Virus record (IMG/VR): IMGVR_UViG_2579778873_000001
Coordinates: 9,557-73,556 of that record
Strand: one strand, 5' to 3'
From: a virus
Lineage: Duplodnaviria > Heunggongvirae > Uroviricota > Caudoviricetes
DNA length: 64,000 nt
The notes below the pieces were generated by a model. That model ran no database searches, had not been told where the DNA came from, and saw nothing but the letters and a program-made list of their open reading frames with translations. A program made the translations under genes and the position numbers. Of this stretch, positions 2,991 through 54,952 are shown in pieces (position 1 is the first letter of the stretch; every line of letters starts with the position of its first letter).

Positions 2991-3581
2991 CTACACAAAA
3001 ACAGATGAGATATTGCTACGGTTGATCGATGTATTACCGCTGCATTGCAGGGTTACCGTGTTATGAGTGAAATAGCCTTCTGGTGTGCGCGGGGCGTCCA
3101 GTTGGTAACTCACGCTTTTGATAACAACGTCGGTAAGGGCTATGTTCCTACCTATGTTTAACGTTACTGTCTCCGGGCGACGACCGAATGGCGCTACATT
3201 GTTCAGTTCCGGCGATTCCATCTTCAGCAATGCTGTAATGGCTGCGTTCACTTCAAGTTGCGCGTTCGTTGTCGCCATGAAATCAATTACCAGATTAAAT
3301 TCAGGCGGTTGCTGACCTTCCCAAACAAGCATTGAGTTGAAGAGGGTTTTTGTTGTTACGCCGGTTGCGGTCTGAAGCGTATCTGCAAGAGAGCCAGCCG
3401 CAGCGCTAATACCACCAAGCAAACCTCCTACTGACTGGTTTTCAAATGGTGATTGCCACATTGATGATAGCTCTGCGGTAGATCCTTCACCGATATAACC
3501 GACGACCATATCCTCTGAAGAGAGGATATAAACCTTCATTAACGGACTTATTCCGTCAGGCATTATCGCGCCGCAAATCAA
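2991..3581 (-). CDS. Phage morphogenesis protein, unassigned
   Basis: 196-aa ORF in the structural operon. Confidence 0.45.
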   Translation of the reverse strand: MICGAIMPDGISPLMKVYILSSEDMVVGYIGEGSTAELSSMWQSPFENQSVGGLLGGISAAAGSLADTLQTATGVTTKTLFNSMLVWEGQQPPEFNLVIDFMATTNAQLEVNAAITALLKMESPELNNVAPFGRRPETVTLNIGRNIALTDVVIKSVSYQLDAPRTPEGYFTHNTVTLQCSGNTSINRSNISSVFV

Positions 3582-3630
3582 ACGCTATTTCTCCCAGGTA
3601 GAGGCCACCTTTGCAGGCGGCCTATGTCAC

Positions 3631-4371
3631 TTACAAACCGCGTTTTTTGCGAATGCGCATTGATTTTTTGCGGTTGATATTCGCTACGGATGTATGCGCT
3701 TTGCGGCGTGCTTTTTTCAGCGCCTGTTTTTGCAATGACGTCATGCGGCGAGGACGCGGGCGTTTACGGATGATGGTAACCTTGCCATCACGAACCACTT
3801 TTTTACGTACCGCTTCCAGCATTGCGCTATCACCACCAGCAACGGTGTAAATGGCAATAGCTGTTTCCATCATGTCGGTGTCGCTTTCGGAAAGAGCGTC
3901 AAAAACACGTTCGGCAGCTGAGTCATCTTCATCGTCGATCATTTCGGTTACATCGTCCTGATCAGCGCCAAGCGCAACAGCTGCATCAGCAAGAGCTGCG
4001 AGAGCATCGTTATAAGCATCGATTTGTTCATCGGTGAAATCGGTGCCTTCATCGATATCAGCCAGGCCAGCCATAGTGATTGCTAATGCATCAAATGAGT
4101 CAGCCTCCGGATCACCATCTTCAACCCAACCAGCAAGCATGGACGCTGCCAGGCTGCGCATATCACCTTGTGCACGGGATTCAACCGCTTCCATCATCGC
4201 GGTTTCAATGTCGTCTTTGGGCTTTGGTTGAGTGTCCTTTCCTTTCTGTCCTGCGCTTTCCAGCATGGCGTTATCATTATTGTCCTGAGTGGATTTATCA
4301 CCGCTTTCAAAGCAGCCAGAACCGAAAATCGCACGCATAAAAGGATCAGCAGTATAATTTTTCATATTCAA
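3631..4371 (-). CDS. Acidic protein with strongly basic C-terminal tail; scaffold or internal virion protein candidate
   Basis: 246 aa; D/E-rich body followed by an Arg/Lys-rich tail (RKRPRPRR...RIRKKRGL); composition typical of scaffolding or DNA-associated internal proteins. Confidence 0.45.
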   Translation of the reverse strand: MNMKNYTADPFMRAIFGSGCFESGDKSTQDNNDNAMLESAGQKGKDTQPKPKDDIETAMMEAVESRAQGDMRSLAASMLAGWVEDGDPEADSFDALAITMAGLADIDEGTDFTDEQIDAYNDALAALADAAVALGADQDDVTEMIDDEDDSAAERVFDALSESDTDMMETAIAIYTVAGGDSAMLEAVRKKVVRDGKVTIIRKRPRPRRMTSLQKQALKKARRKAHTSVANINRKKSMRIRKKRGL

Positions 4372-9284: not shown

Positions 9285-9583
9285 TCCCCCTTCCCTTCCC
9301 AAATCTCCCTGTTTTTTTGGTTATTCAGTGCGTTTCGTTGGTTGCATTCGTCGATCGTGCTGAATAACTGTTCAGCGTATGTCGGATACTTGTTTAACAG
9401 CACTGGCGTGTCTTCTGGCACTAAACAAGGGGAGTAGTCAATCAGATTTGCCTGCGGCCTGCTGGTGGCTTCTACGGTAATTTTCACTGGCACGCTGGTT
9501 GATGGCTTTTGCCCGTTCCCGCTGCATCCTGATAACGTCATCAGGCACACGTACATCGTTAATCCCAGCACGGCGTAACGCAT
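9272..9583 (-). CDS. o-spanin (Rz1-like outer-membrane lipoprotein)
   Basis: Lipobox LSGC after a hydrophobic signal (internal Met MRYAVLG...); starts inside the i-spanin gene in another frame and extends past it (overlapped architecture); periplasmic Cys residues. Confidence 0.55.
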   Translation of the reverse strand: MRYAVLGLTMYVCLMTLSGCSGNGQKPSTSVPVKITVEATSRPQANLIDYSPCLVPEDTPVLLNKYPTYAEQLFSTIDECNQRNALNNQKNREIWEGKGDQGS

Positions 9584-26925: not shown

Positions 26926-27549
26926 ATGAAGGATGGTGTAGTGAAGTTAAGGGCTTTAGGGGCCGCGCTCGCGGCTATGTTGGGATGCGTATCTGCTAAT
27001 ACTGCCAATGCAACTGCGTTACCTGCACAATTCAGGGCAGGGCAGCAGGTTATGAATAACGCTGGTGGAGTTCATTCACAAGCGGCCATTATGGACTTTT
27101 GCAAGAGGGAGGGCATTCCATTACGGCCTGTTGGAACTCAGTTTATTGGTAAAACTGACTTTTGCGTTTTTGCATATACAGCATATCTGACGGACAAAGC
27201 TATAACAAAAACAGGTTATTCAACCAAAGATACTCTTTCCAGATTAAGTCAGGGATGGCAGCAATTCGAAGTGTATCGCCAGCAAGGATTAGGTGAGTTA
27301 TTGCAACCTCTTTTTATGCTTGCGTTGGTGCCAGAGGGGCAGCAATTTTTGGTTAAAAAGGGAATGCTTCGCCAAAGTGATATTGCCGGGTTCGATAGCA
27401 TGATGGCTTATGAGCGCAAACTAACCGAGCAGCGAAATAAAAAACCATCTGCTTCATGTGTGCAAAGTAAAACAGCAGAATACAGTGCAGTAGCCGGGCC
27501 TTTAGCCAAACAAATGGCAGAGCAATGGTGTAAAAAATACGGGCAATAA
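26926..27549 (+). CDS. Predicted lipoprotein, function unknown (cargo)
   Basis: Signal peptide with lipobox LGCVSA; 207 aa. Confidence 0.55.
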   Translation: MKDGVVKLRALGAALAAMLGCVSANTANATALPAQFRAGQQVMNNAGGVHSQAAIMDFCKREGIPLRPVGTQFIGKTDFCVFAYTAYLTDKAITKTGYSTKDTLSRLSQGWQQFEVYRQQGLGELLQPLFMLALVPEGQQFLVKKGMLRQSDIAGFDSMMAYERKLTEQRNKKPSASCVQSKTAEYSAVAGPLAKQMAEQWCKKYGQ

Positions 27550-27569
27550 GTTACGCAGCGGAGGCAGAA

Positions 27570-27962
27570 TTGAAAAGATTGGCTATTGCTTTACTGGCGT
27601 CTTTCCCTTTGATCGCGAGCGCCGGAGATTTACAAGTTAAGTGCGGTCGGTTTGATATAAAAATCTATCCAGATGCCATATTTCTGAATGGGAATAAGGT
27701 TGATAACGCACACCGAAAAACTGAATCTGACGTAATGAGCTATGTGTTCCAGGAGTATGCGGAGATGGGGGGAACTTACACGCTGTACTCGCTGGATGTT
27801 CCTTCTCGCGGTGATATGACATTATCCCATCAATGGCAGAACGCCGACGGCGAAGCTCTGCGCGAGGTTAAAACAGAAAAATGTGGCACTTTCCATTCTT
27901 TTAAAGGGAAAGCGCCAAATGTTAAATCTGTGCTTGAAAAACAGCGCGCAGGTGAGCTTTAA
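27570..27962 (+). CDS. Predicted secreted/periplasmic protein, function unknown (cargo)
   Basis: Sec-type signal peptide MKRLAIALLASFPLIASAGD; 130 aa; 20 bp after the lipoprotein gene. Confidence 0.55.
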   Translation: MKRLAIALLASFPLIASAGDLQVKCGRFDIKIYPDAIFLNGNKVDNAHRKTESDVMSYVFQEYAEMGGTYTLYSLDVPSRGDMTLSHQWQNADGEALREVKTEKCGTFHSFKGKAPNVKSVLEKQRAGEL

Positions 27963-28349
27963 ACACCTTTAACCACGGAGATGCCGTTCCCTGCACGATA
28001 GCGGCGGGGAACGGAATTCTCCATCAGGTCACGAATTACTCCCGCCTCATGTAGTTCCACTGTTTCCCAGTATCTGTTTATCACCAATTACGCCCCGTTC
28101 CGCCAGGGGAAGGTATGAACGAGCTTCTGCTTCGGTTGCAGCCATGACGCAGATATACAGGTGTTTTTGGCAGGAATAGAAACGCCAGATAAATTCAGAA
28201 TGAGTTGGGGTGGGGATAGTAGCGATATTGGCAGCCTCCTTTGACTAAGTTAAGGAGCTACCGCGTGAGGTTCCAATCCCGGCACCCGTTTTTCTAAGGT
28301 GCCGTAGAAATATACCCCACGATAATGCCAGGGCGCAAAAGTCAGTATT

Positions 28350-28517
28350 TTATGCTTTGGCGGATTTCTTCCGGGCTTGCTTGCAGGCGTAGGCCATTGC
28401 TTTAGCTTTCACTTCATCCAGCTTCCCGGTGATCACTTCTTTTCCGAGAGTGACAAACCAGTCATAGCAACCGCCAGTGATGTTCTGGATTTGAAAGTTG
28501 AGGTAGCGAACGGTCAT
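28350..28517 (-). CDS. Unannotated 55-aa ORF with strong RBS
   Basis: Not in ORF track. ATG preceded by GGGGGTG at -8; MTVRYLNFQIQNITGGCYDWFVTLGKEVITGKLDEVKAKAMAYACKQARKKSAKA; followed by two hairpins. Confidence 0.3.
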   Translation of the reverse strand: MTVRYLNFQIQNITGGCYDWFVTLGKEVITGKLDEVKAKAMAYACKQARKKSAKA

Positions 28518-28836
28518 TTTGACACCCCCAGCGCGAGTAAAGAATGCAGATTATCGCGTGAGTGGCGGACAACGAGTGACGGGAAAAGACAGTAGCTGTT
28601 CATAGTGTAGTGACTCCTTGCTTTCGGAGCCGCCATCGACTGTTCCACGGTCTGGTGGCGGCGCAATAAAGGCTGGAACACCGTGAGTCAACGGGGGCTT
28701 TTCAGCCACCTATATTGCACCGCCATAGGTATGGCGGCGGCAATAATACGAAAAACTATACAGTTTGTCTCAAAAAGTTGACCGGTGTGCCAATCGGTAG
28801 TGAATGTACATCGGAGAAATTTATAATTCAACTTAA

Positions 28837-28853
28837 AATGTTAGAAAACTAAT
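28837..28853. promoter_or_regulatory. C1-type operator motif (AAATGTTAGAAAACTAA)
   Basis: Overlaps the 3' end of the ref-like gene; oriented toward the structured region and small ORF to its left. Confidence 0.45.
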
Positions 28854-29466
28854 TCGTCAATTCAATCGCCATCTGATACAACGTCATTTCATCAGCATTG
28901 TGCCGCCTGAAATCTGCTTTACCGCCTATTTTTCCATCAGCATGAACAGGAACCAACCAGGGGTATTGCTCGCGGATCTCTGCTGGCGCTGCGTGTTGAT
29001 GGTGCCATTTACACAAAGGGAGGACGTATTTATGCGCGTTCTCTGCTGTTCTTCCGAAGATGTGGTGCAGGGATACCACAGGGCTATGCTGTCCGTGCAT
29101 ATGGCAGGCAATGCAGGGGAGAGCACCGATGGCAGTTTGTATCCGGCGCTCATCTGCTGTGAGTGTTCTGCCTTTCAGGCCGCGTGACGCGCGAGTTTTT
29201 TTGACAGGAGCAGAAGCGGCCTTCTCTTTTCTTCGCTGTTCATATTGCTTCGCTTTTTCAATTTTCTTTTGCCGATATTCAGGCGATGCGGCTTTTTCTC
29301 GCGCACGCTGCTGCTGGCGTTGAGCTTGCTGAAGACGCTTTGCCCTTTGTTCCTCCCGCCATTTCGGATCAGCCAGTTTTTGCAGGGCTTTTTGTGTCTG
29401 TTTCTCCCAATAGCTTTGCTTCATAGAAATACCCGGTTTGTCTACATAGCCGCTATGGTTGATCAA
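28849..29466 (-). CDS. HNH endonuclease, Ref-like (P1 recombination enhancement function family)
   Basis: 205 aa; basic N-terminal coiled region then HNH core (LPCIACHMHGQHSPVVSLHHIFGRTAENAHKYVLPLCKWHHQHAAPAEIREQYPWLVPVHADG); operator pair directly upstream. Confidence 0.5.
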   Translation of the reverse strand: MINHSGYVDKPGISMKQSYWEKQTQKALQKLADPKWREEQRAKRLQQAQRQQQRAREKAASPEYRQKKIEKAKQYEQRRKEKAASAPVKKTRASRGLKGRTLTADERRIQTAIGALPCIACHMHGQHSPVVSLHHIFGRTAENAHKYVLPLCKWHHQHAAPAEIREQYPWLVPVHADGKIGGKADFRRHNADEMTLYQMAIELTN

Positions 29467-29467
29467 A

Positions 29468-29506
29468 CATGTTAGAAAATCAAAATTGATTTTCTAACAC
29501 AAAATG
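29468..29506. promoter_or_regulatory. Palindromic double operator at a divergent promoter
   Basis: catgttagaaaatc / gattttctaacacaaaatg: two motifs as inverted repeats with a 6-bp spacer, between the ref-like gene and the rightward early operon. Confidence 0.55.
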
Positions 29507-33657: not shown

Positions 33658-34346
33658 CCCAGGCTCTGCATGAAGTGAATTTATATAGCCGTATTGATGG
33701 TTCTGGCTATAGAAACATATGGGTTGTTGGTGATCTGCATGGTTGCTACACCAGACTGATGTCCGAACTCCATCGTGTGGATTTTGACCCGGCGCAGGAT
33801 TTACTGATATCGGTTGGCGACCTTATCGATCGCGGTACTGAAAATGTCGAATGTCTGGAACTATTGCAGATGCCCTGGTTCAGGGCAGTAATGGGGAACC
33901 ATGAGCGGTTGATGCTTGATGCGTTAAGTCCTGATGGCAACGTGAATAACTGGCTAATGAATGGCGGACAATGGTTCTTCATGCTGGACACTGATCAGGA
34001 AATATTAGCCTGGGCGCTGGTGGAGCTGGTAAAGCGTCTGCCCTATATCATTGAGCTGAACACCGGGCATGAAACTATCGTTATAGCCCATGCCGACTAT
34101 CCAGGTGGAGAGTACCAGTTCGGTAAGGATGTGTCGCTTTTTGATGTTGTCTGGTCGCGCAGTCGCGTCGGTGATTCGATAGATGGCATTGGTGGAGAAA
34201 TCACAGGCGCAGATCGCTTTATCTTTGGGCACACACCGGTACGAAGACCAAAAGCATACTGGAATCAGCACTACATAGACACGGGCGCGGTTTTTTGCGG
34301 AAATCTGACGCTAATGCAGGTGAAGGGAGGGCAGCTTAAAGTCTGA
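33654..34346 (+). CDS. ppp: Ser/Thr protein phosphatase, lambda-phosphatase (calcineurin-like) family
   Basis: Metallophosphatase motifs GDLHG, GDLIDRG, GNHE in canonical order; 230 aa. Confidence 0.8.
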
Positions 34347-34373
34347 TCAAATCATTTACGCACTCAAAATTAC

Positions 34374-34407
34374 GTTAGAACGTTGATTTTAGTTTTCTAA
34401 CATATTA
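34374..34407. promoter_or_regulatory. Operator motif pair upstream of 34445
   Basis: agttttctaacatatt (34392-34407) plus weaker half cgttagaacg (34374-34383). Confidence 0.45.
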
Positions 34408-34444
34408 TTTTACCGCTCGGAACAAAACAGAGTCGGTATACATT

Positions 34445-35440
34445 ATGAGTGCAATAATCACACCTCATTTCGTAAACGGAGCTGGTGTGGCTGTCTTTCC
34501 GGTAGACAAGCCCACCAGTAACTACATTGGCGCAGGTCGCCGTTTCATTATCTCCCCACTTCCGCGTGAACAGGCTGAAAACACTCCAGATGGCGTAGTG
34601 GATCTGAATTATTCGCTGGTTGCCAACCAGTCTCTGAAACCGTTTTTTCAAAGCGAGCGCGTATTTAACGCGTTGGGCGGTGAAGATTCGCTTGTTCATT
34701 GGGTAAGTTCCAATATCCACGATTGCCAGGCGCACGATAAGCGCGATTGCAGCCACCAGCTAACCACTCATTTCTATAACGGCTCTGCCGTTCGCCTGTG
34801 CTGGAAGCATGATGCGGAATACATGATGAAGGGGTACAGCAAGCTGGACGACCAGTTATCCCTGAATCGTGCCAACTGGGTTATGAACTGGGCTGCGAGC
34901 GAGTTAAAACTACCGCCAGAACGCGATCTGAGTATGGTTGAACTCACTTTTTGGGCCATTCGCCGGAATCTGAAAGATGAGCTGCCAGATGAAGCCGGTC
35001 GCATTGCATTTTGTCAGCCAAAAACTGAAATCCCTACCGGTACGCTGAAAGAATCAGATATCACCTGGGAGCACAGTACCCGCGAGCTGGTGGACATAAC
35101 CGCAGAGCAGATCGTCAACCTGTCTGTAGATGAGGATTCCGGCCTGCTTTATATGCGCCGACCAAAAGCGGTCCTCGGTAAAAGCCCGGCTTATCTCCGG
35201 TTTGTGGTTTCTCGTCCGTGCATCGGATGCGGTGGCAAAGTTAACCACCCGTTCATGTACCGCGCCCGCTCGTTAAACGAACACGACCGCTGGGCTGTTC
35301 CTCTTTGCGATGACTGCGCCAGAAGCGCAGAAAACGATGTCCGGGCATGGGAAAAAGCACATGGCATACGCCTTTACGTAGCCGCTAACCAGCTTTTTGA
35401 CTTCGCCATCGAGCGCGGAGTAATCACGTTTAATAACTGA
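34445..35440 (+). CDS. Hypothetical protein with C-terminal Cys cluster (zinc-ribbon-like)
   Basis: 331 aa; CIGCGG...CDDC near the C-terminus. Confidence 0.45.
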   Translation: MSAIITPHFVNGAGVAVFPVDKPTSNYIGAGRRFIISPLPREQAENTPDGVVDLNYSLVANQSLKPFFQSERVFNALGGEDSLVHWVSSNIHDCQAHDKRDCSHQLTTHFYNGSAVRLCWKHDAEYMMKGYSKLDDQLSLNRANWVMNWAASELKLPPERDLSMVELTFWAIRRNLKDELPDEAGRIAFCQPKTEIPTGTLKESDITWEHSTRELVDITAEQIVNLSVDEDSGLLYMRRPKAVLGKSPAYLRFVVSRPCIGCGGKVNHPFMYRARSLNEHDRWAVPLCDDCARSAENDVRAWEKAHGIRLYVAANQLFDFAIERGVITFNN

Positions 35441-46849: not shown

Positions 46850-47887
46850 ATGAGTAAGAAGTCGATCGAGAAAGAGTACAAACGGTTCCTGCAAACCGCT
46901 GAACGGTGGAAAGAGCTGGTGGTCGCAAACTCTGTTTTCCATGATACCAGTTATGCTGGCGAGGAATTCCGCCACGTTGCACTAACACACGACCAAAATG
47001 TACTAGAAGAAGCTGAAAAGTGCCTCGCAGAATGGAAAGCCTTTGTTGACTTGTGCCGTAATGCTGACGGCAAAGCGTCTAACATTGTTGAGTCTGTATA
47101 TTCTCCGATCCCATTCATCATTGAGGACACCAATCAAAGCACGCATGTTGTTGTGCAAAGCGCTACAACAACACGTACATTTACACGTGAACAATTGCTC
47201 AAAAAATACGACAAAATCATAAAGAAAAGCCTGAAAAATAGGGTTTTTTCTCAAATCGTAGGTGCTCTTGAAGAAGAACAGCGCTTCTTTGAAGCTGAGC
47301 CTGAAGGCGAGGTCTACCGGGCGCGTAAAGAGGCATATACAGATGTTGTGCTGACAACAAACATCGAAGGCAGCAATGCCCTTTCTCGCTTTAGAGTTGG
47401 CGCACATGGCGCATTCGTTTTCGCAAAACTACCGAAGACAACGATCCCCGTTGTCAATAATGTTGGTGAACGCCGTAGCATTACAATTTATTCTGGCGTC
47501 GAATCGGTGCCTTGCAGCCTTCTCGGCGACTTTAGCTTATATCGTGTTCGTGACCTGGAAAAACATCAGCCAAGCTACGTTGCGAAGTCGTATATCTTAA
47601 GGAACATCGATATCCGCAACGAAAACCTTAAGCAGAAATCAGCTAAGATGCTGGAGGATGCCGATCCGGCTATTCGCCATATCATTGAACGTAAGATTCG
47701 TACATCGCGTGAAGCAATGGCAAGGCTGGATAAAATGGATCTGGAATTGTTAGACGTAATGATGGCCTCTGGAGACGACCTGACCGGCATCAAACTGAAT
47801 GAAGCGCGTAAAAAATACGGCAAAGCAATCGAAGAACGTTACGGATACACATTCCCCCAAACGCAGCGCGCCGCAAAGCTCTGGTAA
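46850..47887 (+). CDS. Hypothetical protein; positional candidate for the C1-type master repressor
   Basis: 345-aa ORF in the position the c1 operon holds in P1 (divergent from the recombinase across the lox-like site, convergent with pacB) with an operator in its promoter; no sequence-level confirmation. Confidence 0.4.
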   Translation: MSKKSIEKEYKRFLQTAERWKELVVANSVFHDTSYAGEEFRHVALTHDQNVLEEAEKCLAEWKAFVDLCRNADGKASNIVESVYSPIPFIIEDTNQSTHVVVQSATTTRTFTREQLLKKYDKIIKKSLKNRVFSQIVGALEEEQRFFEAEPEGEVYRARKEAYTDVVLTTNIEGSNALSRFRVGAHGAFVFAKLPKTTIPVVNNVGERRSITIYSGVESVPCSLLGDFSLYRVRDLEKHQPSYVAKSYILRNIDIRNENLKQKSAKMLEDADPAIRHIIERKIRTSREAMARLDKMDLELLDVMMASGDDLTGIKLNEARKKYGKAIEERYGYTFPQTQRAAKLW

Positions 47888-47915: not shown

Positions 47916-49424
47916 TTATATATCCAGATCCGGCATTTCGATATCCGCCAGAACCTGATCTCGGAAAGTTGCCATTTCGGCACCAATATCTTCATTAGCA
48001 GGCACATAGTCCACCAGCATAGTGAAGCAGTAGGTATCCCATCGGTCAGGCGATTTGATGTTTAGCTTTTGCCGCATGTGCTCTTTGCGCATCATCGCCA
48101 TTTTCCCTTCTTCATTCAGTAAAAAGGGGATTTTTGACGCTTGCTCTGCCGTTTTAGAGTCACTGTCTATCCGCATACGCCCTGACTTTATGGCATCACG
48201 CGCCATAATATTTGCGTAGGCTCGCTGATTAACAAATCGCTCCCTGTCTTTGTTCGCAAACATGGGTTTTCCCCACCGAATACGTACCGGGTTCGCACCA
48301 CGACGCACCAACTGCGCACACGTATCAGAACCAAAACCATCAGCATCAACCGCGATTGTTATATTCGGGTATTTTTCCGGCGTACATTCGTTATATATGA
48401 AGTCAGCAAAGGCCAATGGGTCCATAGTGCCAGGCATCTCCATTACCTTAAAGTTAACAACGCGCCGCTTATCCCTGTGACCTGATACCTTGCAGATGTT
48501 GAGGACCGACTTATCTCGCCCATTACCAACGTCAGCCGTTGCCACCCATCCCCAGTTTTTCTCCAACAACACCTTGCGGCGAGCAGCGCGATCGCATTCA
48601 TCACGACCAAGCAAATAGCCGTTAATTTCTCGTGGGAACTGACCAAGCACCTTGACCATGTACTCAATAGAATCGCGCCCGCCATATTCCAGAAGCTTCT
48701 CCTTGATGAATTGTGGTGTGACGAACGGTGATTCTTCCGAGTTAAGAACAATTGCTGTCCAGATCCCTTTCGGGTTGTCTGGGGTTTTTGCTCGAGAATG
48801 GTGCGAATCGTAGAAATAACCACTTGGCCTTGTTGGCTGGGATAGCATCAACATCCGGTTATCTTCTTCAGTAAGAGCACCGGTCATTACGCCGATCGCC
48901 TTATCAGATATACCAGATGCTTCATCCAGAATTAGAAGCAAATGTGCCGCGTGTTCCCCCGCCAGCGCTTCTTCGTTGCCGAGTCGATAACCTTTGCAGA
49001 GAACTTCCCAAATCCCCTTACGGGAGCGCTCATAAAACATGGTGTCAGAGAGGACAAAATAGGTCTGCAACCACCCATGACGCTTAACTGCATTCGCCCA
49101 ATACTGTTTAACGTATTTGAATACGCCTGTTTTTACCTGGCCTATCTTGTTAGCAACAATGATGACACGGGCATCGGGGAACAGGATCATAAAAATCAAC
49201 AGCAACATCGCGGTAAGGGACGACTTCCCCGTTCCGTGTCCGGACGTGACGGTAGTCCTACTCCCCGTTTCCTGTACGGACTGAATGATCTGCTGCTGCT
49301 GGTGGGAGGGGAACATCCCAAAAATATCGACAACAGCCTGGGTAAAGTTGTAGCGGTATTTGATTACCATATCGCGCCAGCGTGGATCTCTGGTGACGCA
49401 TTTAACCTTGCGCCTGCCAGCCAT
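47916..49424 (-). CDS. pacB: Terminase large subunit (PacB-like)
   Basis: 502 aa with Walker A TSGHGTGKSS and downstream acidic nuclease-type residues; coupled to the upstream small subunit. Confidence 0.7.
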   Translation of the reverse strand: MAGRRKVKCVTRDPRWRDMVIKYRYNFTQAVVDIFGMFPSHQQQQIIQSVQETGSRTTVTSGHGTGKSSLTAMLLLIFMILFPDARVIIVANKIGQVKTGVFKYVKQYWANAVKRHGWLQTYFVLSDTMFYERSRKGIWEVLCKGYRLGNEEALAGEHAAHLLLILDEASGISDKAIGVMTGALTEEDNRMLMLSQPTRPSGYFYDSHHSRAKTPDNPKGIWTAIVLNSEESPFVTPQFIKEKLLEYGGRDSIEYMVKVLGQFPREINGYLLGRDECDRAARRKVLLEKNWGWVATADVGNGRDKSVLNICKVSGHRDKRRVVNFKVMEMPGTMDPLAFADFIYNECTPEKYPNITIAVDADGFGSDTCAQLVRRGANPVRIRWGKPMFANKDRERFVNQRAYANIMARDAIKSGRMRIDSDSKTAEQASKIPFLLNEEGKMAMMRKEHMRQKLNIKSPDRWDTYCFTMLVDYVPANEDIGAEMATFRDQVLADIEMPDLDI

Positions 49425-50788
49425 TAATCATCCTCCGGCGGTTCTATCGCGATATCATCATCTCCGGCGTCATACCCTGCATCAGATGCATCATAATCAC
49501 CGTAAATTTCAGCCGTTGCCGAAGGGTCAATATCCAGCTCTTCGTCGTTGGCCTCGAATTCTCCAGCTTTACGCTCGCCATTGCGGTCGTAATCTCCGCA
49601 CCCCAATTCTTCAACAATGGTTGCCACATCCGCCCGGCGCTCTGCCAGCCATTGCGGATGGTTAGCCTGAAGCGTTGCAAACTCCCTTGCCTCTTTGTCC
49701 AGCTGTTCATCATCAACATCATTGACGTCAGAAACAGGTGGTTCGAGAAGAGTGATAGCTTTCGCCGCGCGCGCCGCGAGGATAGCCGGGACGCTGACAC
49801 CCTGGCGCTCGATGTATTCAGCAACACCGATATCATCCAGTTCCTCGCGCTCACGCATACGTATAGCGGCGGCGATAACTCTGGCTGCGCGTGCGTCAGC
49901 GCCAATGCGATATTCAATCTCTTTGCCACGCTGTTCGGCCTGTAGGCGTGCTAATTCGAGTTTTTCTCTGGCCTCAGCCTCTTTGAATGCTTGCTGGCGA
50001 GCGCTCTGACGAAGCTTTTCATCCCCCTGTCGCAGCTTTTGTTCGGACTGATAAATAGCTGCCAACCTACTGATAAAATCATTCATGTAGTAGGCCGCGT
50101 CACTGATTAGACCGAGAAGGCGCTGCCCAGGGTGCATTCCTTCTGGCTCTTTATCGCCCAGGGTGTCTATTTCCGCCTGTAGACGTTCGGCCTCCTGATC
50201 AACAATGCTTTGATACTGAAGTGCGCGCTCTTGCGCCATTTGAATTGCTAACCGCAGGTGTTCTTCTGCGCCGTTCTTCATCATATCGCGAGCTACATTC
50301 GTAGTTGGCAATGTGGCACGCTGCACAGCACCGTCAGGGATCATTGCAGAAGATCCCTCAATTTTTGGGGCGCTTTTATCTTCTTCGGGGATCATTTTCG
50401 CCATTTTTTCGCGTAATGATCTCCTGACGGATTCTTTTATCTCATTGTTATTATTTGAATTATTTTCATGATCCGAAGTTTTCTTTCTCGGCATACTTCG
50501 GAAAGAACCTGCGCCCTGCGAATTGTCAATTTCTGTAAATTTTGTTTTTCCTGCACCCTCTTCCTGCTTTTTTGTTGCTCTTCCTGCCCGTTTTTTTTCA
50601 GGTGATTTGGTGCTTTTTTTTGTTGTCTTTACCTGCGACCGCACCTCATTTTTTTTCATATTGAGATGCTTTCTGGCTGTATTGAAGCTAAGGCCATGCT
50701 CCTCACAGTATTCCTTTACAGTGATCCCTTTTTCTTCACGCAACGCTATAAAGCGGGCGCGGTGCTCCTCCCAATTAACCAGACTCAT
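49424..50788 (-). CDS. pacA: Terminase small subunit (PacA-like)
   Basis: N-terminal HTH-like segment, charged coiled-coil middle, acidic C-terminus; position directly upstream of the large subunit. Confidence 0.55.
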   Translation of the reverse strand: MSLVNWEEHRARFIALREEKGITVKEYCEEHGLSFNTARKHLNMKKNEVRSQVKTTKKSTKSPEKKRAGRATKKQEEGAGKTKFTEIDNSQGAGSFRSMPRKKTSDHENNSNNNNEIKESVRRSLREKMAKMIPEEDKSAPKIEGSSAMIPDGAVQRATLPTTNVARDMMKNGAEEHLRLAIQMAQERALQYQSIVDQEAERLQAEIDTLGDKEPEGMHPGQRLLGLISDAAYYMNDFISRLAAIYQSEQKLRQGDEKLRQSARQQAFKEAEAREKLELARLQAEQRGKEIEYRIGADARAARVIAAAIRMREREELDDIGVAEYIERQGVSVPAILAARAAKAITLLEPPVSDVNDVDDEQLDKEAREFATLQANHPQWLAERRADVATIVEELGCGDYDRNGERKAGEFEANDEELDIDPSATAEIYGDYDASDAGYDAGDDDIAIEPPEDD

Positions 50789-52707: not shown

Positions 52708-52783
52708 TGGTGGCCCCTACCGGACTTGAACCGGTGACCGTGCGATTATGAGTCGCCAGCTCTAACCACTGAGCTAAAGGGCC
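52708..52783 (-). tRNA. tRNA with CAU anticodon (ileX-like tRNA-Ile2, or Met)
   Basis: 76-nt cloverleaf read by hand: acceptor GGCCCTT/AGGGGCC, anticodon loop CTCATAA, T-loop TTCAAGT, encoded CCA; close to E. coli ileX as recalled. Confidence 0.8.
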
Positions 52784-52937
52784 AGATTACTGTTAATTCC
52801 GCTTACGCTTTTTGCCAGGACCGCGTAAGGCTTTTGCTGCTTGCTCGACCCCATATGCAACCACCAGCAGAAATAAAAATGTCCACCAAGGGTTCTTGTC
52901 GGCAAACGTCCAAAATTCCATCATGTTCTCTATTTGG

Positions 52938-53765
52938 TTATTTCACCGGAACAAACGGAACAGCGGTATTACTGGTCATATACTGCGGTAGCGTTCCGTT
53001 CCATTTGTTGATCGCTTCCAACTCCATAACGCCGGGGTTCTGGCGCAGAGCCTCACCGCGTAAACGAATGGCATCAGCTTCAGCCTGGGCTTTTGTGCGA
53101 ATGGCATCGGCCTGTCCGGCAGCTTCTGCGCGCAGCATGTTGGCTTCTGCTTCGCGTTGCTTGACTTCCTGCTCGCGTTGCAGAGTTTTCTGGTTCGCCG
53201 TGACTTTGGCATTAATGCTGTCGATAACGGTTGGCGGGTACTCCGGCTTGCCCACATATGAGAGGCTCATTACCTGAATACCGATGGGCGTCATTTCTTC
53301 CTGGATGTCTTTAAGAGCTGCATCCAGCAGTTCAGACTTGCCACCGTCGATAAATTTGTCGGTGGTCATTTTGCTGGCCAGTCGGTTAAGTGCGTCGGCA
53401 ATCTTCTGGCGCAGGTCGGTGTCGGTAATGTCATCCACGCCTTTGCGGTAGGTCTGAAATACAGTTGTGACTTTTGCCGGATCAACCTTGTAAGCTACAC
53501 CAATGTGGTAACCAATTGTTGTCCCGTCGCTCATTTGGAAGCTGAACGGATCATCATAGGTCTTCATTTGCTTAAAGGTCGGGAAGATATAAACTTCTGT
53601 GTTCCAGCCTGTCCAGTAGCGACCAACGCCAACTACTTCGCCGACACCTTTATCATCCCCCAGCTTATTTACTTTGATCCCTACATTGCCTGGTTCTACC
53701 CGGTCGCATCCGGTCAGACATAAAGAACCAAAAATAATCGCTGCACTAATCAACGTTTTTTTCAT
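52938..53765 (-). CDS. SPFH/band-7 family lipoprotein (Plp-like)
   Basis: Lipobox LTGC after a signal peptide; C-terminal Ala/Glu/Arg-rich coiled-coil typical of SPFH proteins. Confidence 0.6.
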   Translation of the reverse strand: MKKTLISAAIIFGSLCLTGCDRVEPGNVGIKVNKLGDDKGVGEVVGVGRYWTGWNTEVYIFPTFKQMKTYDDPFSFQMSDGTTIGYHIGVAYKVDPAKVTTVFQTYRKGVDDITDTDLRQKIADALNRLASKMTTDKFIDGGKSELLDAALKDIQEEMTPIGIQVMSLSYVGKPEYPPTVIDSINAKVTANQKTLQREQEVKQREAEANMLRAEAAGQADAIRTKAQAEADAIRLRGEALRQNPGVMELEAINKWNGTLPQYMTSNTAVPFVPVK

Positions 53766-53983
53766 TAATCAATTTCCTGGATTTTTTTGCGAAAAAAGAC
53801 TACTGCAAAAGCCGGGTAAATGAGCGCGAGAAGGACTCCCAACAATACAAGTATTGTGCTGTCAGATGAGATCATATTTGGCAAAAGCCAAACATACAGA
53901 ACCAGTGACACAATCAAACAGAGGACGACATAAATATATAGCCGCACCCATAGCGTTCGACATTTGTTCGGATTGTTCTGCAT
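53765..53983 (-). CDS. Small integral membrane protein (Upl-like)
   Basis: 72 aa with two hydrophobic helices; coupled to the lipoprotein gene. Confidence 0.45.
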   Translation of the reverse strand: MQNNPNKCRTLWVRLYIYVVLCLIVSLVLYVWLLPNMISSDSTILVLLGVLLALIYPAFAVVFFRKKIQEID

Positions 53984-54246
53984 CCTCTCACTCCATTATT
54001 TAACGAATAAAAAAGCTGCGGTGCCTGGTGCCTCCAGGTGACGTTAACCAGTTAACAATTAACGCCGGGATGTTTGATTTAACCACTAATAAGGATTGTT
54101 TTAACTGTTCCGCGTGCGCTTAGCCGCATTCACCGCAATGGTAAGAGCACTTGGCTGGCTGGGCGGCGATGACGCCTGTACGCATTTGGTGATCCGGTTC
54201 TGCTTCCGGCATTCGCTTAATTAGCCAAATACTCTTAACGTTGCGC

Positions 54247-54332
54247 TGGCGGAGAGTAATGGAATCGAACCATCATCGCTTGCGCAATGGGACGGTTTTC
54301 AAGACCGCTTGAGCACCATGCTCCCTACTCTC
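54247..54332 (-). tRNA. tRNA-like element with Ser-type anticodon loop (UGA); non-canonical, possibly degenerate
   Basis: Acceptor GGAGAGT/ACTCTCC plus G and CCA, anticodon arm CGGT-CTTGAAA-ACCG, long variable hairpin with GCAA loop, T-loop TTCGATT; but 5-nt D-loop and A at position 8. Confidence 0.3.
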
Positions 54333-54474
54333 CGGCCGTTGTGGTGGCCGGTACTGAATCTCCGGCATACGGTGCAGCCAATTAGGACTACGGACGATCA
54401 CCGCTCGCGAAAGGGAAGATTTGCGGCCGCATTTCCCTAACATCCAAGAAAGCTATCGCATCAGTCTGCGAATC

Positions 54475-54574
54475 CACCACAACGTTGAGAACACTGGTTG
54501 TCACGCTGCCTCGCGACATTTATTCATAGATTGGGATATGATCCCGTTACGCCAATGTTCTCAACGTTGTGGTG
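54475..54574. repeat. 19-bp perfect inverted repeat flanking a 62-nt loop
   Basis: caccacaacgttgagaaca (54475-54493) and its reverse complement (54556-54574); right arm runs into a 12-nt copy of the tRNA-Thr 3' end. Confidence 0.5.
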
Positions 54575-54798
54575 CCGGTTACGGTTCCGGCCAGGCCTCT
54601 TCCTCAACGGGGTGTTCTCCATACGGACTACCGTTTATTGGTCGTTCCTGCGGTTTATGTTGTGAAGCCAGATGCTTATCTTCTGGTTGCTTCAAAGAGC
54701 TGCACTTCATCACAACGGTAAGGGTACTTCGTAGGGATTCGAACCCTCTGCCAAGCACGGCGATCTCCGACGTCGCAAAATACCCTTACCTGTTGTGT

Positions 54799-54874
54799 TG
54801 GTGCCGGTTAACGGACTCGAACCGCTGACATCCTGCTTACAAGGCAGGCGCTCTACCAACTGAGCTAAACCGGC
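54799..54874 (-). tRNA. tRNA-Thr (UGU)
   Basis: 76-nt cloverleaf: acceptor GCCGGTT/AACCGGC, anticodon loop CTTGTAA, T-loop TTCGAGT, CCA encoded. Confidence 0.85.
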
Positions 54875-54876
54875 AT

Positions 54877-54952
54877 TGGCGATGGTGGATGGATTTGAAC
54901 CATCGACCCGTTGATTAACAGTCAACCGCTCTAACCGCTGAGCTACACCATC
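54877..54952 (-). tRNA. tRNA-Asn (GUU)
   Basis: 76-nt cloverleaf: acceptor GATGGTG/CACCATC, anticodon loop CTGTTAA, T-loop TTCAAAT, CCA encoded; 2 nt from tRNA-Thr. Confidence 0.85.

Follow-up and report, generated by a model that had tools for sequence, protein, structure and literature searches.

A divergent C4-family RNA and its predicted target ORFs in a D6-like P1-type phage-plasmid

Bacteriophage P1 carries in its immI region a c4-icd-ant operon that is controlled by the C1 repressor; the C4 RNA is needed for the full repression of ant, and icd is involved in ant regulation (PMC8198154). The reference used for the P1/P7 immI front end was Citron & Schuster 1990, as cited in PMC8198154, together with positions 48140-49731 of the P1 record NC_005856. 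P1 c4, annotated in this record at 48343-48419, has two hairpins inside a 17-bp outer stem, together with a single-stranded junction of 7 nt, CUGUCAA, which is complementary to the annotated a sites; the loop of hairpin 2 is complementary to the b sites. In the IsrK/orf45/anrP system of the Salmonella prophage Gifsy-1, a small RNA controls an antirepressor-type gene via the translation of a short upstream open reading frame (ORF) (PMC4825925). Here, we analysed a 64,000-nt stretch of viral DNA (hereafter, the window; positions 9,557 to 73,556 of the IMG/VR record IMGVR_UViG_2579778873_000001), in which a leftward segment at 28850-28350 carries a C4-family RNA, named c4-A, followed by a 29-codon leader ORF and a 55-aa ORF, named ORF55.

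Alignments identify the window as a D6-like P1-type phage-plasmid. The region is 91% identical to Phage D6, an Escherichia phage and P1-type plasmid prophage, and 99.4% identical to Escherichia coli plasmids of 89-90 kb, such as NZ_CP029365. The sequence features, fold, complementarities, conservation, and deletions reported below were seen directly in the DNA. Our interpretation is that the minus strand of 28850-28350 forms an antisense-RNA switch of the c4 type that is complete in itself and is a paralogue of the P1 immI front, and we regard the full mechanism as likely. That the segment 28730-28651 is a c4-type RNA gene is very probable. The c4-A/leader/ORF55 unit is complete in the window and was found in 33 of the 33 relatives examined. 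The existence of extra c4-like regions in D6-like elements is not new; the present analysis adds the anatomy of c4-A together with its targets and cargo, and a deletion scar.

A preliminary description of the segment had likened it to the front of P1 immI. This likeness is sustained by the C4 match, the c4 architecture, and a/b sites placed as in P1, but the gene assignments were wrong. The 55-aa ORF had been taken for the counterpart of icd, whereas the leader ORF at 28603-28514, which had been overlooked, holds the place of icd, and ORF55 holds that of ant. The features of the unit are listed below in the order of transcription.

28839-28849, plus strand: core (TGTTAGAAAAC) of the operator motif for the repressor, located 7 nt ahead of the distal -35 and invariant in the relatives
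28803-28831, minus strand: predicted distal promoter, read from the sequence (-35 TTGAAT at 28831-28826, 17-nt spacer, -10 TACATT at 28808-28803)
28743-28771, minus strand: predicted proximal promoter, found by promoter scan (-35 GAGACA, 17-nt spacer, -10 TATTAT)
28651-28730, minus strand: c4-A, divergent C4-family antisense RNA (Rfam C4, RF01695, 40.2 bits)
28641-28647, minus strand: a' site TGGAACA, the exact complement of the c4-A junction UGUUCCA, about 6 nt past the predicted 3' end of c4-A
28611-28616, minus strand: b' site GAGTCA, the complement of the hairpin-2 loop UGACUC, within the Shine-Dalgarno (SD) sequence of the leader ORF (AAGGAGTCA)
28514-28603, minus strand: 29-codon leader ORF (MNSYCLFPSLVVRHSRDNLHSLLALGVSK) in the position of icd; its ATG is at 28603, and its TGA overlaps the ATG of ORF55 (ATGA)
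28350-28517, minus strand: ORF55, conserved 55-aa protein (D6 orf85, phrog_7786) in the position of ant, supported by the ratio of nonsynonymous to synonymous substitution rates (dN/dS) and by PHROGs

The c4-A RNA and its target sites

The comparison covered 33 relatives for the c4-A unit. For c4-B, the C4 RNA of the icd/ant module that adjoins the unit in D6 and D6-like plasmids, types were compared among 32 IMG/VR loci, D6, and two plasmids. The diverged relatives were L025, L029, and L027, with 75-82% identity in intergenic DNA and flanks; L041 was the most diverged homologue.

c4-A was the only C4 match returned by a permissive Rfam scan of the window (40.2 bits; E = 1.1e-5 locally and 3.4e-4 for the whole window; model positions 1-87 of 87). 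The orthologues in D6, L003, L033, and L027 scored 38-40 bits, and that in L041 scored 48.1 bits, which is over the gathering score. As controls, c4-B gave 74-77 bits on the same model and P1 c4 gave 68.8 bits; after rounding, c4-A stands at 40 bits against 69 bits for P1 c4. Since the score of c4-A lies under the threshold of 45 bits, the defining features of the family were tested directly.

The 96-nt stretch 28740-28645 (minus strand) folds at -39.3 kcal/mol (z = -3.98), and 0 of 200 shuffled sequences folded as well. The GC fraction is 0.56-0.58 across 28600-28750 versus 0.31-0.33 across 28750-28900, the promoter region, which agrees with the GC-rich structured segment described previously. 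The minimum-free-energy and centroid folds both have the C4 architecture, in which two hairpins and a single-stranded junction of roughly 7 nt lie within an outer stem of about 17 bp. Homology with P1 predicts a mature form of 71 nt, at about 28724-28654, that comprises the outer stem, the two hairpins, the 7-nt junction UGUUCCA, and a 3' GCCACC. It has the same shape as P1 c4, with the junction at the same position and the same GCCACC, a determinant like the 3' CCA of tRNA, at the equivalent 3' end. Hartmann and co-workers reportedly described in 1995 the dependence of P1 c4 on RNase P. When c4-A, c4-B, P1, and RCS47 were aligned, compensatory changes were seen in 11 of the 17 outer-stem pairs; within the c4-A type they were seen in 8 of 26 pairs. 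We conclude that c4-A, which folds exactly like P1 c4, belongs to the C4 antisense-RNA family as a divergent member that had not been annotated.

The two stems that had been named in the GC-rich segment are both real, but they are secondary to the c4 fold. CGCCAT-aggt-ATGGCG is a hairpin of the 5' leader and a rival of the c4 outer stem in the precursor. GCCGCCA...TGGCGGC arises where the 3' strand of the c4 stem pairs with a downstream copy of its 5' strand, looping out the a' site.

As is characteristic of C4 RNAs, the junction and the hairpin-2 loop of c4-A are complementary to co-transcribed a and b sites, with the b site at the ribosome-binding site of the first ORF. The order in the window is RNA, about 6 nt, a', 24 nt, b', 7 nt, and the ATG at 28603; in P1, it is RNA, 3 nt, a2, 22 nt, b2, 10 nt, and the ATG of icd. 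The site a' is invariant in all relatives, with variable flanks, and across the 33 relatives a', b', and the SD are all invariant while the sequence between and around them varies. In L027, a U>G change in the loop lengthens the b' pairing to 7 bp. The preliminary description had suggested looking through the element for sequences complementary to the segment. The arrangement TGGAACA-N(10-40)-GAGTCA occurs once in the 64 kb, with N24 and directly after c4-A, versus 0.07 occurrences expected.

Candidate a1/b1 sites upstream of c4-A (TGGCACA and GAGACA, each with one mismatch, plus GGTCAAC) were rejected; they are not conserved in L029 or L027. A whole-RNA duplex scan of c4-A against the downstream mRNA was uninformative because stem sequences dominate, and it was replaced by loop- and junction-specific matching.

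Promoters, leader ORF, and ORF55

The operator motif, with at most one mismatch, has 14 copies in the window against 2.66 expected, and 0 of 100 shuffles reached 14; the aligned sites lengthen the motif to tgTGTTAGAAAAtTAA. The copy with its core at 28839-28849 bears out the leftward unit with an operator that had been placed at 28837. Another copy precedes a c1-like repressor gene (46868-47560), the product of which resembles P1 C1 (tblastn, E = 1e-7). The predicted operator at the promoter of the unit would be of the C1 type, as in a P1-type immI operon. A perfect inverted pair of the motif (TGTTAGAAAATcaaaattgATTTTCTAACA) was also observed at 29470-29499, between the leftward ref gene and a rightward operon that begins with a 51-aa ORF and a DUF4406 gene; this is a predicted divergent, repressor-controlled promoter region.

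In both the c4-A unit and P1/P7 immI, two promoters stand in tandem, with an operator immediately before the first; the plan in P1 is Oc4, then P2c4, then P1c4. The distal promoter of the unit is the analogue of P1 P2c4/P51a, and the proximal promoter is that of P1c4/P51b. The distal promoter was not picked up by the consensus promoter scan. Hexamers of its type are found at the same positions in the diverged relatives, as TTGAGT/TACATT in L025 and TTGATC/TAAATT in L027, with different spacers. From the proximal promoter, the predicted start lies about 12 nt before the c4-A stem; GAGACA and TATTAT, TATGAT, or TAATAT are kept at 17-nt spacing in L025, L029, and L027, and the spacer itself has diverged. 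A terminator-like hairpin at 28795-28780 was rejected as a terminator; its T-run is missing in L025.

As in P1 immI, the first small ORF overlaps the start of the second. The first is a 29-codon leader here versus the 73-aa Icd in P1, and the second is the 55-aa ORF55 here versus Ant in P1. In L025, L029, and L033, the leader carries a 3-nt deletion and a 9-nt insertion, yet the SD, start, frame, and ATGA overlap are kept, and the leader appears to behave as a translated coupling ORF. It is probably a worn-down icd. In L027, a 60-aa ORF replaces the leader and is followed by a hairpin and then ORF55; to the eye, the C-terminal half of its product (...TFRIEAETEKEARRLVAPTHVCFFAG...) seems to resemble Icd. 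Proteins in the databases, 83-85 aa long, have the leader joined in frame to ORF55. A G-run/A-run at the junction of the two ORFs (28514-28530) was observed to vary in length in relatives (proteins P0001, P0002, and P0004; L030), the variants yielding either overlapping ORFs (ATGA) or the in-frame fusion. This variation could reflect a slippage-prone sequence or a sequencing error.

ORF55 was confirmed at 28517-28350 (minus strand), with an SD-like run (GGGGGT) 6 nt upstream. Its conservation, which the preliminary description had proposed to check, extends to 33 of 33 relatives. Compared with L027 and L029, ORF55 has 12 nucleotide differences and 2 amino-acid changes in 45 codons (dN/dS 0.04-0.06), and a dN/dS of about 0.05 indicates that it is a real, strongly constrained gene. 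It matches phrog_7786, a family of unknown function (E = 1.8e-43). Pfam gave only sub-threshold matches (DUF3319, 16.7 bits versus a cutoff of 25). In a large protein collection, ORF55 formed 16 clusters, almost all on contigs of about 90 kb, and an exhaustive HMMER profile search added a handful of unannotated distant relatives of about 50 aa, together with repetitive or spurious long matches. ORF55 thus appears to be confined to D6-like elements and a few relatives. The AlphaFold (AF2) model, with a mean confidence (pLDDT) of 84, has four short strands and one long basic helix; the predicted fold is soluble and bears a basic tail. No Foldseek match at E < 0.8 was found for the model in PDB or BFVD. 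Neither the leader nor ORF55 shows, on inspection, the transmembrane-like hydrophobic stretch of a type I toxin-antitoxin system.

Proposed mechanism and alternative explanations

In the mechanism that we favour, leftward transcription would start from two promoters, the distal one beside the operator of a C1-like repressor and the proximal one probably constitutive. The transcript would first carry c4-A, which is tRNA-acceptor-like, ends in GCCACC, and would be cut out by RNase P by analogy with P1 c4. Free c4-A would then pair through its junction UGUUCCA and its loop UGACUC with a' and b' on the same mRNA species. This pairing would block translation of the leader and switch off the translationally coupled (ATGA) ORF55, with transcriptional polarity probably helping. 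Blocked leader translation is therefore proposed to keep ORF55 silent in the plasmid-prophage state; ORF55 would be made only on infection, before repressor and c4-A accumulate, or on derepression. RNA processing, pairing in vivo, repression, and timing are what we infer in this scheme.

If so, the P1 c4 design, in which an antisense RNA is cut from the transcript of its own target and acts on a short coupling ORF, would be a portable cassette that is reused with different cargo within one phage-plasmid family. Such regulation would imply that ORF55 is harmful or unwanted in the prophage state, and it gives a handle on a tightly conserved 55-aa protein. Current understanding is not overturned; the regulator is of a known kind. 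A divergent C4 subgroup is missed by the Rfam threshold, and genome annotation calls hypothetical ORFs in its place.

Several observations weigh against this mechanism. The C4 score is under the Rfam gathering score of 45 bits in every D6-like copy, and for the 148-nt precursor the minimum-energy structure is an alternative one in which the c4 outer stem is broken up. The duplexes are short, with 6 bp at b' and 7 bp at a'. The sites a' and b' and the c4-A loops do not vary in the D6-like relatives, which therefore show no loop-target covariation for c4-A. In L041, good a/b-like sites lie upstream of c4-A, and no convincing a'/b' was found between c4-A and ORF55. Finally, ORF55 has an SD-like run of its own, so its coupling to the leader may be partial.

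Alternatively, c4-A may be an immunity RNA that acts mainly in trans, the leader and ORF55 being incidental. Its candidate targets would be the a/b sites of the neighbouring icd-ant module or of superinfecting relatives, with backup of or cross-talk with c4-B. A duplex of 6 bp is possible between the junction (GUUCCA) and the type-2 a site (TTGGAAC) of c4-B, and another of 6 bp between the loop (UUGACU) and the type-2 b site (AGTCAAAGG); these sites precede icd in the window and in many relatives, and the best complementary sites in L041 are not in front of ORF55. This explanation is nonetheless unlikely. Pairing is better (7 + 6 bp) with the cognate a' and b' that immediately follow c4-A, and their placement is exactly that seen in P1; c4-A does not change, while the targets of c4-B vary among four types, some of which c4-A cannot match (GAGAC, GGTCT, GCAAAAGG); and the window retains c4-A though its icd and ant are dead. 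The c4-A junction and loop could still make 6 bp apiece with the orphan type-2 sites before the dead icd (28235-28278), and on this basis cross-talk between the two modules is possible in type-2 elements.

The segment could also be a decayed, non-functional c4 pseudogene derived from a duplication of the immI front end, in which case ORF55 would simply be under the operator-controlled promoter. We consider this very unlikely. The sub-threshold Rfam score, the degenerate and non-conserved a1/b1-like sites upstream (one mismatch each), and the visible decay of the neighbouring module in the window would fit a pseudogene, but the RNA, the promoter hexamers, a', and b' are far better conserved than the surrounding non-coding DNA. 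Substitutions in the stems keep or improve pairing (U.G>C-G and U.U>C-G, with many full compensations in L041), and c4-A is present in 33 of 33 relatives as well as in the diverged L041. Reading the GC-rich segment as protein-coding, or as nothing more than a ref terminator, is extremely improbable. Some open frames run through it (28514-28681, 55 aa with a GTG start; 28551-28709, 52 aa), D6 annotates a 40-aa orf86 from an upstream ATG, and the segment lies about 120 nt after the ref stop codon. However, the upstream ATG of orf86 is lost in L025 (GTG) and in L027 (no start), whereas the ATG at 28603 and its strong SD are kept, and the substitution pattern fits paired stems rather than codons. 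As for a terminator, the structure is not followed by a T-run, and ref is separated from the segment by two conserved promoters.

The c4-type switch acting on the leader and ORF55 therefore remains the explanation that we favour. An extension of it, which is conceivable but doubtful, is that three orthogonal c4-type switches (immI, c4-B/icd/ant, and c4-A/ORF55) coexist, and that ORF55 is a small lysis-lysogeny or host-takeover effector under its own RNA lock. Candidate roles of ORF55 under this extension would be a Coi-like repressor inactivator or a replacement of Icd. If it is true, ORF55 would be the only cargo of the secondary region that is retained when the icd-ant module is lost, as in the window.

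The unit differs from P1 immI in having no downstream kilA or repL and no intact upstream a1/b1 element. The earlier statement that no ant, kilA, or repL follows was correct within the window (ORFs, tblastn); with c4, icd, ant1/2, kilA, and repL taken as the P1-type immI operon, no Ant or KilA homologue was found downstream by tblastn and ORF analysis. In contrast to the proposed action of c4-A, IsrK of Gifsy-1 activates translation in trans, and the isrK model (RF01394) does not match c4-A. It does match an element between ORF55 and c4-B in the D6-like relatives.

The c4-B/icd/ant scar and the genomic setting

The c4-B/icd/ant module of D6 and D6-like plasmids is on the same strand as the c4-A unit, adjoins it, and has the same architecture and pairing logic. 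D6 and most relatives have it intact. It differs in that target pairs lie upstream as well as downstream of c4-B, and it comes with at least four specificities, versus one invariant specificity for c4-A. In the window, its a2/b2 sites and the 5' half of icd are still present. The remnants, which lie beyond the segment covered by the preliminary description, are as follows.

28281-28303, minus strand: hairpin GGCACCUU...GGGUGCC with an 8-bp stem, identified by folding; 5' remnant of the isrK/c4-a1b1-like element that precedes c4-B in D6
28269-28278, minus strand: GATTGGAACC, hybrid of the a1 and a2 repeats; scar of a 189-bp deletion, from alignments with D6 and CP125036
28235-28245, minus strand: orphan b2 site (GTCAAAGG) left behind by the lost c4-B; it overlaps the icd SD AAGGAGG
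28047-28226, minus strand: icd remnant, with its start changed from ATG to ATC (28226-28224); the homology with Icd stops near 28107 and is followed by foreign sequence
27959-28087, minus strand: 3' piece, 42 codons long, of the gene located after ant in relatives (labelled 'transcriptional regulator' in NZ_CP085065; its D6 counterpart is pmgF-like)

Two hairpins had been noted after ORF55. One of them, at 28303-28281, is solid, but the other is weak, and the 76-nt stretch downstream of ORF55 is not exceptional (z = -1.1). The isrK model matches D6, L003, and L033 with 59-63 bits. All that the window retains of the isrK/c4-a1b1 element (RF01394, RF03163) is roughly its first 30 nt, and the match at 28302-28252 (14.5 bits, E = 4.6) is insignificant alone and interpretable only via the D6 alignment.

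Between 28281 and 28269, D6 has 189 extra bases relative to the window, which contain b1, a terminator, and c4-B. The D6 c4-B is a C4 RNA of 76 bits and is preceded by an isrK/c4-a1b1-type element of 59 bits. Recombination between the a1 and a2 repeats removed c4-B here, which illustrates in nature how such modules disappear. The icd remnant was recognised by tblastn with D6 Icd (E = 6.5e-24) and P1 Icd (E = 8e-12) and matches positions 2-41 of 73 in phrog_1426. About 1.28 kb, comprising the 3' end of icd and ant, is deleted between approximately 28107 and 28086, fusing icd at about codon 40 to the tail of the next gene. The alternatives of a truncated version or a different small unit, raised in the preliminary description, both apply: the c4-A/leader/ORF55 unit is complete, and the adjoining c4-B/icd/ant module is deleted.

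Three lesions (loss of the a1-a2 interval, ATG>ATC in icd, and deletion of the icd 3' end and ant) are common to the window and NZ_CP029365. Both deletions occur together in 8 of the 263 matching plasmids. In CP125036 and CP125072, ant is deleted as well, but c4-B and the icd ATG are kept; the ant deletion therefore occurs without loss of c4-B, which fits ant having been lost first. This agrees with P1, in which loss of c4 is not known to be tolerated unless ant is inactive.

Among the relatives, three a-variants and two b-variants give four specificity types of c4-B, including a hybrid type. c4-B carries GUCUC, GUUCC, or AGACC as its junction and CCUUUUGC or CCUUUGAC as its loop, and these covary perfectly with a1/a2 and b1/b2, respectively. 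This covariation offers strong comparative support for the predicted pairing mechanism in the family. The types look like modular heteroimmunity switching, whereas c4-A never varies. In L003, the c4-B RNA is at 3548-3635 (Rfam C4, 77 bits). A 39-aa 'ash family protein' coding sequence was seen to overlie the c4-B RNA gene (L003 3512-3631, L043 606-725, and many plasmids), and it is probably an RNA gene that was mis-called as a protein.

The canonical immI of this plasmid family lies outside the window, about 1.5-3 kb beyond its right end, at 34,000-35,400 of NZ_CP029365 (L040 22440-23730). It has a bivalent operator, c4-a1b1 (53 bits), a P1-like C4 (69.6 bits), an icd-like gene, and a Rha-family antirepressor gene, and it adjoins a repL-like gene and a TnpB gene. 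By these matches, D6-like elements would carry up to three c4-type modules with different specificities.

The upstream context of the c4-A unit is a further feature:

28849-29466, minus strand: ref-like RecA-dependent nuclease gene (Pfam RecA_dep_nuc, E = 2.5e-36), called Ref in D6 and the plasmids

The stop codon of this gene abuts the operator. The leftward counterparts in D6 are ref (orf87), the 'hypothetical' orf86 and orf85, the 72-aa Icd-like orf83, and the antirepressor orf82. Synteny is kept in L041, in the order ref, c4-A, an ORF55 of 45% identity, isrK, c4-B, and icd.

On the other side, two rightward genes at 26926-27962 (plus strand) converge on the module. They encode proteins of 207 aa (phrog_12786) and 130 aa (phrog_13864), both of function-unknown families, and the 130-aa protein has an N-terminal signal-like sequence. 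A stem-loop at about 27977-28023 lies between the convergent units. Elsewhere in the window, a tRNA cluster at 52711-54952 (minus strand) has three tRNAs above threshold, a tRNA-Sec-like match at 54250-54334 (46.6 bits versus a gathering score of 47), and an STnc100-like match at 54017-54137 (40.4 bits versus 47).

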